DNA of 64,000 nucleotides from an uncultured Actinomycetes bacterium (lineage in GTDB: Bacteria > Actinomycetota > UBA4738 > HRBIN12), in contig OY969934.1 in the NCBI GenBank assembly GCA_963704725.1, positions 1,685,138 through 1,749,137 on the forward strand, given 5' to 3'. Position 1 is the stretch's first letter. Each line of letters opens with the position of its first letter. Under the pieces are notes generated by a model. That model was given only the letters and a program-made list of their open reading frames with translations. It was not told the DNA's origin and did not search any database. The position numbers and the translations under genes are program-made. Of the stretch, positions 47,822 to 59,628 are shown in pieces.

Positions 47822-48098
47822 CGAGCGTCAGCGGCTCCAACACGGGCGAGCGGAGGATCGCCGTCCGGATGGCGTCCTCGTGGGACGGGCAGCAGGCGCT
47901 CCACGTCAGGTGATCGCCCGCACGGGAGGCGCGGATGTCGATGGGCCTCCTCCCGTGCGCCGGGCACCGCACGCGCCGGATCCTCGCCCGCGCGGCAGCG
48001 ACACCATCTCTCAGGGCCTCGCGCTTGACGCACTCCAACCACTCGTCGGCAGACACGGGGCGGCCATGCGCGTCCCGGAACTCGATATCGAGCTTCAC
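47778..48098 (-). CDS. hypothetical small protein (Cys/His-containing)
   Basis: C-terminal ~106 aa of track ORF 47778..48356 from GTG about 48098 (AGGAG upstream); CPAHGRR...[13 protein letters not shown]. Its 3' end overlaps the sufB stop by about 44 nt convergently. Confidence 0.3.
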
Positions 48099-48130
48099 CA
48101 GCACCTCCTGGCTTGATCGCGGGGGAGCGT

Positions 48131-49321
48131 TCACGGTGGACCTCGGTCCTCCAGCCGCGACCCATCCGGCCGGAAGAACGCCGGGCGCCCGTCGACGAGC
48201 TCGAGACGGAACCCGCCGGGCCGATGGACCAGCCGGTGGTGACGGCGGCACAGCAGAATCAGGTTCTGGATCGCGGTCGGACCGCCGTCGGCCCAGTGGA
48301 CCACATGATGAGAGTCGCACCACGTGTGAGGGCGTTCGCAGCCGGGGAACCGGCACCGGCGATCTCGAACCACCACGGCGCGCCGCATCGACGGCGGCAC
48401 CACGGGAGTCCTTCGTCCCACGTCCAGCGGCTCGGACCGTCCGGACAGCACCACACGGGTGACCGACGCGTCGCAGGCAAGTCGCCGAGCGGTCTCGACC
48501 GAGACGGGTCCGACGTCGTCGAGCTCGCTCGGGCCGGCCGCGGCGCCTGTCAGGGCGTCGGCCGGGAGCGTCACGGTGACGTGTGGTCGCTCGCCCGCCA
48601 CGCGGGGACGGTCGGCCAGGTCAAGCCACTGCCGGCAGATCTCGACCAGGGCGTCCGCGCGGCGCTGGGCGGGCGTCCGCTCGTCCTCGGGCCCTCGCGA
48701 TCGTGACTCGGCGTCGAGCACGGCTCGAAGCGCCGTGAGCAGGGTCTCACCGCCCTCGGGGTCGAGATCGAAGTCGCCCCGGACCATCCCGAGGAACGTC
48801 GGCGAGGCATGAAGTCGCCGTCGCGCGTGAAGCGCTTCGTCCCCGTCCCTCGCCTGCTCCCGCTCGACGATCTGGCGCCAATGCGCGGCGACCCGCTGCA
48901 GGGCCCCCGTCGAGTGGATCCGGGCGGCTTCCACGAGCTGGGCCTCCGAACGCGCGAACGCCTCTCGGTCGAGGTCGTGCGCCGTGGTGAGCACGCGCGC
49001 CGCGGAGAGCGACAGCTCGCCGTCCTCGAGCGCCCGCCGGGTCACCGGCATGTCTTCGAGCGCCCGAGCGACGCGCACCGACTCGCGGGCCGTCCCCCAG
49101 GCGACGTTGAACCTCGCGTTGAGCCAGGAGGCCGAGGACAGGTTCCCGTCGCGCTCGAACAGCCGACGCCGCTCGATGTCCGCCAGCCGCCGGAGCCGTT
49201 CGACCTCGAGCAGCTCCATCGCCCGGTGCAGCTCGGCGAAGTCCTCCTCGATGACCGCGTCCGGCAGCTCGGCAAGGAGCTCGGACTGCAACGCATCGAT
49301 GGCCGAGCGAAGCTCGCTCAA
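48131..49321 (-). CDS. DUF222 plus HNH endonuclease domain protein (REP13E12-like family)
   Basis: 396 aa; C-terminal HNH motif CRFPGCERPHTWCDSHHVVHWADGGPTAIQNLILLCRRHH preceded by the family-typical N-terminal region. Confidence 0.85.
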   Translation of the reverse strand: MSELRSAIDALQSELLAELPDAVIEEDFAELHRAMELLEVERLRRLADIERRRLFERDGNLSSASWLNARFNVAWGTARESVRVARALEDMPVTRRALEDGELSLSAARVLTTAHDLDREAFARSEAQLVEAARIHSTGALQRVAAHWRQIVEREQARDGDEALHARRRLHASPTFLGMVRGDFDLDPEGGETLLTALRAVLDAESRSRGPEDERTPAQRRADALVEICRQWLDLADRPRVAGERPHVTVTLPADALTGAAAGPSELDDVGPVSVETARRLACDASVTRVVLSGRSEPLDVGRRTPVVPPSMRRAVVVRDRRCRFPGCERPHTWCDSHHVVHWADGGPTAIQNLILLCRRHHRLVHRPGGFRLELVDGRPAFFRPDGSRLEDRGPP

Positions 49322-59000: not shown

Positions 59001-59578
59001 CCCTAATGCCGCGGGTGTACGAGCGGGCCCGGGTCGCCCACCAGCGGACGTGCCCGATCGGGGAGCTGCTGGCCCGACCCGAGGACAAGCACCTCGAGTT
59101 CAAGTCCACGCTGCGGTGGGACCTGAAGACGGGGGAGAAGAGCCGTCTCGTCGAGGCGGCGTCGATCAAGACCGTCGCCGCCTTCCTGAACTCCGAGTTC
59201 GGCGGGACGCTCCTGGTCGGGGTCGGGGACGACGGGGCGGTCGCGGGCCTGGAGCCCGACTACGCCACGCTCCGCAAGGCCGGCAAGGCGGACGCGGACC
59301 TGTTCCTCCTGCACCTCAACCAGGTGCTCGAGAACGCCGTCGGGCTCGCGGCGGCCGCGAACGTCACCACCACGGTCCACCGGGTCGATGGCCACGACCT
59401 GTGCCGGGTCCACGTCGAGCCTTCGGGGCACCCCGTCGACGCCGAGGTCGCGGTCGCCGACCCGCAGGGTCAGCTCGGCAGGAAGCGCGTCTTCTACATC
59501 CGCCTCAACAACGGGACCCGGGCGATCGAGGACGAGCGGGAGCGGGAGCGCTTCGTCGCCCATCGCTGGGGCACGTAG
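56075..59578 (+). CDS. hsdR: Type I restriction enzyme R subunit fused to a C-terminal AlbA_2 / Schlafen-like domain
   Basis: 1167 aa; helicase Walker A QHSAGSGKS and DEAH box VVVDEAHSS; C-terminal ~175 aa (about 59051-59575) with EDKHLEFKSTL and GGTLLVGVGDDGAVAGLEP. Confidence 0.9.
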   Translation: MRITKEVAFEDAIEAHLLDQAGYTRGVTINYDPALAIDTAELFTFIGATQAETWEDLVQRNGGDPDVAQRRFADRLAKQIDERGTVDVLRHGVDDLGVHIRLAYFRPASGLNSDLQQKYDANRLTVVRQLHYAPDHANALDLTLFLNGLPVATAELKNPLTHQTVEHAVAQYRTDRDPRDALLGRRAIVHFAVDPDLVMMTTKLERGATRFLPFNRGGDPGATACGAGNPASPGGYATSYLWERVWERHAWLDLLSRFVHLERSVPGSKAKAAVRDATLLFPRYHQWDAVRRLEAHARAHGAGRNYLVQHSAGSGKSNTIAWLAHRLASLHDPQDRKIFEKVVIVTDRKVLDRQLQDTVYEFEHAHGVVKKVEESSKELAEALRSVEAKIVVTTLQKFPFVVDEVAALPERRYAVVVDEAHSSQTGEAAQEMKKALGGVTVETGDEGEIDPQDAVDALVEASARARGPHDNLSMFAFTATPKAKTLELFGEPPDEDGRHRPFHLYSMRQAIEEGFIVDVLEHYTTYETYFRLARAGEEDPEVPVREASKAIARYVMLHPSVVEQKAAIVVEHFRRSTRDRIGGRAKAMVVCRSRLSAVRFRLAIDAHAREHGYGDVGTLVAFSGTVTDDGVDYTEPNMNGFSESQTAERFASDEHRILVVAEKFQTGFDQPLLHTMFVDKKLEGVNAVQTLSRLNRIHPDKEDTFVLDFVNDAEQIQRAFAPYYDAAIAVPTDPNELYDAWREVDRFGVVWSEDVEALARLYFGPAATQAKLYALLDAARERFTDLDETEQEELRTWLKRFVSRYGFISQVLPMADTAMEKRYVYCRLLERVLPSAPSGSMDLGDRLAMTHLRVTRTGEHDLSLEKGGGVLRAFGEGGPGGYEDLLAPLSELIGRMNELFGADLSEADLLHLEGIGADMVANPEVQQQAAANTVENFGIEFDKRFTDAVAARMSQAEELTIRILDKPEFREEVVRALMPRVYERARVAHQRTCPIGELLARPEDKHLEFKSTLRWDLKTGEKSRLVEAASIKTVAAFLNSEFGGTLLVGVGDDGAVAGLEPDYATLRKAGKADADLFLLHLNQVLENAVGLAAAANVTTTVHRVDGHDLCRVHVEPSGHPVDAEVAVADPQGQLGRKRVFYIRLNNGTRAIEDERERERFVAHRWGT

Positions 59579-59628
59579 GCTCCTCGCGAGCCGAGGGAAT
59601 CCGACCTCGCTGATAGGATTTCGTCAGC

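Follow-up and report, generated by a model that had tools for sequence, protein, structure and literature searches.

A type I restriction-modification locus with variable cargo between sufB and sufD: a probably long-resident defence island of an uncultured Actinomycetota lineage

Known systems and the sufB-sufD locus

Chromosomal hotspots of defence islands between conserved core genes are known from Pseudomonas, Vibrio and Escherichia coli, and the canonical actinobacterial suf operon is organised as sufR-sufBDCSUT (Rv1460-Rv1466 in Mycobacterium tuberculosis). The locus considered here lies on a stretch of 64,000 nucleotides from an uncultured Actinomycetes bacterium (contig OY969934.1, positions 1,685,138 to 1,749,137; hereafter the window). 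Open reading frame (ORF) listing and Pfam confirmed what a preliminary description of this DNA had reported, namely that sufB ends at 47821, that sufD begins at 59629 and that 13 ORFs unrelated to Fe-S assembly occupy the 11.8 kb in between. The gene inventory given there was also correct, and the genes were of defence type. Gene content, with all expected components present, identified the block as a type I restriction-modification (R-M) operon comprising hsdM, hsdS and an hsdR with a SLFN/AlbA_2 C-terminus. It is probably a long-resident, chromosomally fixed and lineage-wide defence island built on this R-M scaffold, going back to one old insertion beside a sufD gene with a predicted promoter of its own.

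Compared with chromosomal hotspots, the locus displayed the same conserved flanks, variable content, patchy presence and absence of an integrase. In contrast, its flanking genes sufB and sufD normally share one operon, and the variable content was found inside an R-M scaffold rather than directly between core genes. The suf cluster itself resembled the canonical operon in that SufB, SufD, SufC, SufS and SufU were encoded in the usual relative order, that of sufD-Rieske-sufC-sufS-sufU being kept in all relatives. It differed by the absence of sufR upstream in the window, by DUF59 (SufT-like) and rhodanese genes preceding sufB, by a Rieske gene inserted between sufD and sufC, and by separate, repeated promoter- or operator-like motifs before the rhodanese gene, sufB and sufD.

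Type I R-M loci with embedded defence genes have been published, and such 'guilt-by-embedding' is the source of the PDC (phage-defence candidate) models of PADLOC (bioRxiv 10.1101/2024.01.29.577857). The classic example is PrrC, in the prr locus of E. coli. Here too, hsdM-hsdS and hsdR were separated by nested genes of toxin-antitoxin (TA) and defence-candidate type, a first cargo gene matched PDC-S43 and another resembled PDC-S14, and cargo was variable while the R-M genes were conserved. The overall kind is thus already published and does not represent a novel system type; of the 'poorly described system' suspected in the preliminary description, only single cargo genes retained that status. 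Unlike the published cases, the locus also comprised cargo slots outside the R-M genes, occupied one fixed site inside an essential Fe-S cluster across a clade, and carried conserved ChlI-domain and DUF222-HNH genes at its edge.

This DUF222-HNH gene was of the REP13E12 type, REP13E12 being a repetitive element of Mycobacterium tuberculosis according to the passage of PMC10589994 that cites Gordon et al. 1999. The DUF222 plus HNH architecture was the same, and copies were likewise encountered at unrelated sites in related genomes: locus L052 harbored a 76 % identical gene, alone, at such a site. In contrast to REP13E12, one copy only was present within the 64 kb of the window, and no terminal repeats or longer unit were detected, the homology with L052 covering the ORF and ~55 bp. 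Close relatives were absent from the plasmid and phage collections searched; two actinobacterial plasmids carried matches of less than 30 % identity and phages carried none, and the occurrence of the gene on plasmids or phages was rejected on this basis.

Occurrence, divergence and composition of the scaffold

Reference genomes were scanned with SufD at one genome per GTDB species. The nearest relatives were metagenome-assembled genomes (MAGs) with no label beyond Actinobacteria or Actinomycetota, and their SufD identities were 57-73 %. Of the 12 closest, 11 (L002-L012) had sufB and sufD adjacent (3-190 bp apart) and embedded in the common order DUF59-rhodanese-sufB-sufD-Rieske-sufC-sufS-sufU; in the more distant L014 and L015, sufB was also found directly upstream of sufD. 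The adjacency assumed in the preliminary description was therefore borne out by this synteny check. The twelfth relative, L013, harbored a lone DUF222-HNH homologue between sufB and sufD. DNA homology between the window and its relatives ended exactly at the sufB stop codon.

Further loci were gathered from the contigs of DUF222-HNH relatives (>100 at 71-85 % identity) and HsdR relatives (~40 at 76-85 %), and from a metagenome scan with a conserved hsdM 5' pattern. The same scaffold was recovered in eight other loci, from metagenomes or MAGs, of the same uncultured Actinomycetota clade: L051/L055, L053, L056, L057, L062, L095, L108 and L111. It was preceded by sufB in five of the eight (L051, L053, L056, L108 and L111), and L062 displayed a SufB stub of 27 residues; the side from hsdR to sufD was visible in L055, L056 and L057. 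The DUF222-HNH gene kept its position and orientation in L051, L053, L056, L057, L062, L108 and L111, and the ChlI-domain gene (ChlI') was present in all suf-type loci. Pieced together from these loci, the composite order was sufB, slot A, DUF222-HNH (-), ChlI' (-), hsdM, hsdS, slot B with cargo, hsdR-SLFN, slot C and sufD-Rieske-sufCSU; besides the window, L056 alone spanned all of it on one contig. Since the hsdR-sufD junction was identical in an independent Logan assembly (L001) and both junction types recurred in further assemblies, the locus is not an assembly artefact. The same adjacency was documented by an NCBI MAG (P0136, TPA Actinomycetota, 33 kb contig), in which a 'SufD' of 1629 amino acids (aa) was a mis-called HsdR-SufD read-through.

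Contents of the slots differed from one locus to the other. The cargo of L055 comprised a TIR protein, DUF6308, Abi_C, DUF488, a HATPase_c_3 protein and two PIN TA pairs; that of L056 a single protein of 705 aa with no recognised function; that of L062 a CAP12-type TIR and a Fic protein; and that of L053 an SMC-like ATPase. Slot C contained RHH/PemK TA pairs in L055 and L057.

Among occupied loci, protein identities were 82-85 % for HsdR, 81-89 % for HsdM, 75-84 % for DUF222-HNH, 48-65 % for ChlI' and 86-93 % for SufB (86-92 % between the SufB of the window and those of its relatives), and pairwise identities of HsdR and HsdM were star-like. Synonymous divergence (dS) of hsdM (0.42-0.61) was comparable to that of sufB (0.42-0.49). 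All scaffold genes were under purifying selection, the ratio of nonsynonymous to synonymous divergence (omega) being 0.14-0.21 for hsdM, 0.09-0.19 for DUF222-HNH and 0.32-0.58 for ChlI'. HsdS was only 27-31 % identical in relatives; identities between the HsdM of the window and those of the other suf-type loci were 81-86 %.

The hsdM-pattern scan covered 120 loci. All four with a full-length HsdM of at least 80 % identity carried ChlI', and three of these four also displayed DUF222 and sufB where the flank reached; none of the loci with an HsdM of 72 % identity or less carried ChlI', DUF222 or sufB. This one-to-one correspondence between R-M subclade and suf context argues for a single ancestral insertion.

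The lower G+C content noted earlier for hsdS was real (0.61-0.65 around the gene versus ~0.70). Nevertheless, sufB and sufC also dropped to 0.63-0.65 with native G+C at third codon positions (GC3), so raw G+C content alone is not diagnostic. GC3 was 0.73 in hsdS and 0.79-0.80 in several cargo genes, as compared to 0.93-0.97 in native genes, and a tetranucleotide scan of the window yielded 50-56 kb as its sole outlier. Composition was thus atypical for hsdS, as remarked previously, and for the cargo, and native for hsdM and hsdR (GC3 0.94-0.96).

Motifs before sufD and history of the island

Sequences upstream of sufD could not be aligned between genomes, except for a 26-nt motif of the form GAATCCGACC-N6-(T/G)(G/A)TAGGATT located 6-9 nt before the ATG or GTG. 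It can also be written GAATCCGACC-N6-TGATAGGAT or GAATCCGACC-N6-TGATAGGATT, the version of the window containing TGATAGGAT. The motif comprised an inverted repeat, GAATCC-N13-GGATT(C/T), and an extended -10 element, TGnTAGGAT. It was present in all four occupied loci that reached sufD, in L013 and in eight of the 11 empty loci. A copy was situated upstream of sufB, at the same position in eight relatives (L002, L003, L004, L006, L008, L011, L012 and L051), and a related palindrome preceded the rhodanese gene (Table 1).

The -10 element of actinobacterial promoters is TAnnnT. TAGGAT fits this element and its distance to the start codon was short and fixed, which suggests a leaderless sufD mRNA. 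Thus, sufD probably keeps its own, likely leaderless, predicted promoter, which would predate the insertion. The inverted repeat is operator-like and the repeated motifs look like the operator of a suf regulon, and to judge from these motifs the suf cluster of this lineage appears to consist of several co-regulated transcription units instead of one obligatory operon. The island was found between the sufB stop codon and the sufD motif, and the motifs of sufB and sufD were both intact. A separate sufD promoter or operator left in place would explain that the site tolerates kilobases of foreign DNA. The insertion was previously thought to uncouple sufD-C-S-U from the sufB promoter; it probably does not, the motif being kept in occupied and most empty loci alike. 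A defence island may thus split an essential operon without being a recent arrival or causing disruption; here the operon, with its repeated promoter- or operator-like motifs, was probably modular beforehand, and the island probably dates back as far as the clade. For the study of suf regulation in this uncultured Actinomycetota lineage, which has no sufR nearby, the repeated GAATCCGACC...TAGGAT motif also offers a concrete starting point.

Recent acquisition of a mobile island by this very genome, splitting an intact sufBD operon and cutting sufDCSU from its promoter, was the explanation put forward in the preliminary description. The adjacency of sufB and sufD in 11 of 12 reference relatives, the atypical GC3 and tetranucleotides of hsdS and cargo, and the nearest empty relative (L002), whose sufD lacks the motif and is preceded by a Shine-Dalgarno (SD) sequence, would all agree with it. 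However, the scaffold recurred in eight other loci with a divergence equal to that of sufB, hsdM and hsdR displayed native GC3, and the sufD motif was kept whether or not the island was present; relatives carrying the same genes in native composition, named at the time as what would speak against recent acquisition, were thus largely encountered. Signs of mobility were also scarce. No integrase, recombinase or transposase was found among the island ORFs with Pfam, NCBIfam or PADLOC, an insertion sequence (IS) transposase occurring only in relative L108. The junction-repeat check proposed earlier revealed no direct repeat linking the sufB-side and sufD-side junctions, the search over 47000-60500 having returned short matches at chance level. 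No tRNA gene was detected in the window, and no Rfam family, such as an HNH-associated or suf leader RNA, reached E<=0.1 in 44-62 kb. With no integrase, att site or tRNA, the locus did not qualify as an integrative mobile element, and the HNH gene was its only mobility-type signature. Recent acquisition is largely refuted for the scaffold and was considered very improbable.

According to the favored history of one old insertion, a ChlI'-hsdM-hsdS-cargo-hsdR unit would have entered the sufB-sufD spacer once, early in the clade, beside or together with the DUF222-HNH gene. The island would then have co-diverged with its host and been lost repeatedly, while hsdS, or its target-recognition domains, and the cargo would have been exchanged continually. 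The gap between hsdS and hsdR forms the main cargo slot, smaller slots adjoin sufB and sufD, and the TA and defence-candidate genes found in them vary among members of the lineage. L013 may be a deletion remnant of such an island. The locus provides a clear natural example of a stable type I R-M scaffold with cargo turnover, in support of defence-gene discovery by 'guilt-by-embedding'.

Patchiness could alternatively reflect repeated lateral movement into the same site, through homologous recombination in the highly conserved sufB and sufD flanks or homing of the DUF222-HNH gene at the spacer. On the SUF tree, occupied and empty loci were interleaved: L057 was basal, the window and L056 were sister to the empty L002, and L055 was placed beside L005 and L006, both empty. 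The HsdM of the window was 81 % identical to that of L056, its closest host, versus 85-86 % to those of L051 and L053. Moreover, the solitary gene of L052 followed the pattern of a free-standing homing gene, and L013 carried DUF222-HNH alone at the suf site. Against this, hsdM dS approximated sufB dS for all pairs, R-M subclade and suf site corresponded one to one, and no two divergent hosts were observed to share a near-identical island; nor was any conserved target recognised at the sufB-side junction, where spacers do not align. Lateral movement seems unlikely on balance.

Several points nevertheless weigh against a single old insertion beside an independent sufD. The patchy distribution requires many independent clean losses, and the host tree was a quick neighbor-joining tree of concatenated SufD-Rieske-SufC-SufS-SufU from MAG fragments. 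In L002, the closest empty relative, and in L003, the motif was missing and sufD was SD-led, so that the two-unit suf organisation is not universal in the clade. A consensus sigma-70 scan, which excludes actinobacterial TAnnnT promoters, found no promoter at sufD. The frameshifts of the L013 gene (66-77 % identical, in the same orientation as in the window) could be errors of an assembly with 2.3x coverage. Two of the seven cargo genes were antisense, whereas 96.7 % of published embedded genes are co-oriented with their R-M genes (bioRxiv 10.1101/2024.01.29.577857). Finally, R-M activity of the locus is itself a prediction from its genes. Sigma-70 and terminator scans as a whole were uninformative at 70 % G+C, with one promoter-like match inside hsdM and terminators below chance expectation.

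Scaffold, edge and cargo genes

Table 1. Features of the sufB-sufD locus. Coordinates refer to the window unless preceded by another locus name.
Feature	Coordinates	Strand	Description and evidence	GC3
Palindrome before rhodanese gene	45087-45111		AAATCCGA-N9-TCGAATTC; related to the suf motifs
sufB-upstream motif copy	46322..46346	+	GAATTCCGACC-N6-GGATGGACTT; in relatives GAATCCGACC-N6-GGTAGACTT
sufB	46409..47821	+	470 aa; left flank, native; Pfam SUFBD_core 2e-84	0.95
Slot A ORF (doubtful)	47778-48098	-	106 aa; AGGAGG-N5-GTG; GC2 0.62	0.81
DUF222 + HNH endonuclease (REP13E12-type)	48131-49321	-	396 aa; Pfam DUF222 5e-28, HNH 2e-6
ChlI' (stand-alone ChlI/ComM N-terminal domain)	49362..49751	-	129 aa; Pfam ChlI 1e-6; divergent from hsdM
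hsdM	49870..51816	+	Type I methyltransferase; Pfam N6_Mtase 7e-59, HsdM_N 8e-25; PADLOC MTase_I 7e-278	0.94
hsdS	51813..53111	+	Two target-recognition domains; Pfam Methylase_S 1.5e-25, 2 stretches	0.73
187-aa protein, unannotated family	53114-53677	-	N-terminal Zn-ribbon-like sheet and C-terminal winged helix (AlphaFold2 model)
GIY-YIG-like small nuclease (weak call)	53682-54152	-	GIY-N10-YVG motif; Pfam GIY_YIG_2 17 bits (below cut-off); PADLOC PDC-S14 2e-5
VapB	54151-54378	+	Pfam VapB_antitoxin 3.5e-8
VapC	54369-54770	+	Pfam PIN 4e-11
DUF3024	54805-55155	+	Pfam 3.5e-32; PADLOC phage-defence candidate PDC-S43 3e-22, full length
SCO5918-family-like protein	55168-55680	+	NCBIfam SCO5918_fam 7e-12
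Retropepsin-like protein	55677-56078	+	LLDTGA motif; Pfam Asp_protease_2 18 bits (below cut-off)
hsdR	56075..59578	+	1167 aa; Pfam HSDR_N 6e-13, ResIII/SWI2_SNF2 1e-27, T1R_D3-like 2e-11, C-terminal SLFN_AlbA_2; PADLOC REase_I 5e-39	0.96
sufD promoter/operator-like motif	59597..59622	+	GAATCCGACCTCGCTGATAGGATTTC; 26 nt, 9 nt before ATG
sufD-Rieske-sufC-sufS-sufU	59629..63781	+	Right flank, native; Pfam	0.93-0.97
sufD	59629-60939	+	Pfam SUFBD_core 2e-78
HATPase_c_3 proteins of relatives	L055:7641-9248, L057:7669-9204, L108:12269-13789	antisense	Slot B

In the R-M scaffold (Table 1), hsdM and hsdS overlapped by 4 nt (51813-51816), as translationally coupled genes do. HsdR scored 200 bits against TIGR00348, below the cut-off of 285 bits. 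From what is known of these families, HsdM2-HsdS would methylate a bipartite target sequence, and HsdR, a predicted nuclease and superfamily 2 translocase with a C-terminal SLFN/AlbA_2 domain, would join the methylase complex and cut unmodified incoming DNA. The 'hsdR fusion' singled out in the preliminary description proved to be the usual domain arrangement in a large family of HsdR proteins; it was shared by hundreds of homologues (52-85 % identity) from Iamia, Rubrobacter, Thermoleophilia and others, and its novelty was rejected.

The DUF222-HNH translation displayed a Cx2C...HH...N...CxxHH motif. Its neighbor ChlI', initially taken for a 5' fragment of comM, is a conserved family of short ChlI-domain proteins that travels with hsdM under purifying selection, and the interpretation as comM debris was rejected. 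An all-against-library search yielded 23 clusters (E<1e-10) of stand-alone proteins of 88-188 aa, its nearest relatives; full-length ComM was only 35-43 % identical. PF13541 was the only domain in its 129 aa, the AAA+ Mg_chelatase domain that follows it in ComM/YifB (~500 aa in all) was missing, and TIGR00368 scored 18 bits versus a cut-off of 362.

Locus L059, at a non-suf chromosomal site, displayed the order BioY, ChlI', hsdM hsdS TA hsdR ParE, uvrB and lacked DUF222. Its ChlI' was an uncalled ORF of 124 aa (L059:5571-5942 (-), PF13541 3e-10), divergent from hsdM. Since ChlI' adjoined hsdM at this different site, it belongs to the R-M unit; a partnership with DUF222-HNH was discarded in favor of the hsdM link.

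Other arrangements of these genes were observed. In L108, an IS with a DDE_Tnp_1 transposase and a SWIM finger (L108:4103-5314 (-)) was inserted between DUF222-HNH and ChlI', indicating that the pair is separable. In a related R-M operon of Iamia sp. SCSIO 61187 (CP050948), a 363-aa DUF222 and HNH_2-like protein (L058:7898-8989 (+)), 34 % identical to that of the window, was encoded by a gene that overlapped the hsdM stop codon and occupied the usual position of hsdS, followed by an unannotated gene of 308 aa. Its location directly after hsdM hints at a non-random association with R-M genes.

ChlI' and/or DUF222-HNH might be functional subunits or regulators of the R-M system, which would then comprise five genes. 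Throughout the clade, both genes were intact and evolved under purifying selection, ChlI' was divergently paired with hsdM even outside the suf cluster, and a DUF222 and HNH-like gene was linked to hsdM in Iamia. Such a composition is nonetheless extremely improbable: both genes were missing from more remote members of this R-M family, L059 had ChlI' without DUF222, L052 and L013 had DUF222-HNH without R-M genes, and the IS of L108 separated the two with no obvious decay. In addition, their co-occurrence stems from one ancestral event and is not independent, and neither gene had a match in PADLOC. A looser role was viewed with considerable doubt. ChlI', possibly with DUF222-HNH, would then be an unrecognised R-M accessory or regulator, and nesting immediately ahead of the essential, separately promoted sufD-C-S-U unit would stabilise the locus or place it under Fe-S or oxidative-stress co-regulation; if true, the suf cluster would have been selected as a 'safe harbour' in which an immune locus swaps its cargo.

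Seven ORFs were nested in the interval from the stop codon of hsdS (53111) to the start codon of hsdR (56075), five of them co-oriented with the scaffold; the antisense ones encoded the 187-aa protein and the GIY-YIG-like nuclease. Except for the latter and DUF3024, the cargo ORFs (five of seven) had no PADLOC match. The 187-aa protein had 75 unannotated homologues (family of ~185 aa, no Pfam); its AlphaFold2 model reached a pLDDT of 90 and had no Foldseek match in the PDB. Homologues occurred in defence-like neighborhoods with DUF6308, helicase or AddAB-like genes (including L180:8001-8531 and L181:8001-8558), and one directly adjoined DUF6308, itself part of the L055 cargo. A conserved two-gene system with GIY-YIG was not supported, as the homologues of L180 and L181 had no GIY-YIG neighbor.

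The SCO5918-like and retropepsin-like genes overlapped by 4 nt, and the pair was kept at 73 % identity in another R-M cargo slot (L055:6061-6929); lacking any match in PADLOC, it may constitute a defence candidate of two genes. Together with the Zn-ribbon/winged-helix family it was retained among unstudied defence-gene candidates, and the leads arising from the locus are this 187-aa family, the SCO5918-like and retropepsin-like pair and the ChlI-domain partner of hsdM.

Genes vapB and vapC overlapped by 10 nt with vapB upstream, as expected of a type II VapBC TA system, and a pair 74-83 % identical was located directly before hsdR in L055. A DUF3024 copy (71 % identical) followed hsdS in L057. 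The GIY-YIG-like gene on the antisense strand (ATG 54152) and vapB (ATG 54151) overlapped head to head at their predicted start codons (54146-54156), so that one start has probably been misplaced, unless a very compact divergent region controls both genes.

The slot A ORF was antisense to the 3' end of sufB over its last 14 codons (44 nt overlap). It had no match in Pfam, PADLOC or NCBIfam and no tblastn match in 181 loci. The 309-bp slot A was unique to the genome of the window, the same gap being 17-34 bp in L062 and L108, and the 106-aa ORF may be spurious.

Regarding the flanks, SufB, SufD, SufC and SufS were assigned by Pfam, and SufU through its 70-81 % identity to NifU_N-annotated genes of relatives rather than by Pfam on the window protein. 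The true start of SufB was the GTG at 46409 (stop 47819-47821), its length matching that of relatives; a mechanically called ORF of 710 aa (45689-47821 (+)), overlapping the rhodanese gene, was dismissed as a high-G+C artefact. Lastly, the HATPase_c_3 (GHKL-type) proteins of ~505-535 aa were encoded in three different islands, in each case a short way ahead of hsdR or a TA pair.

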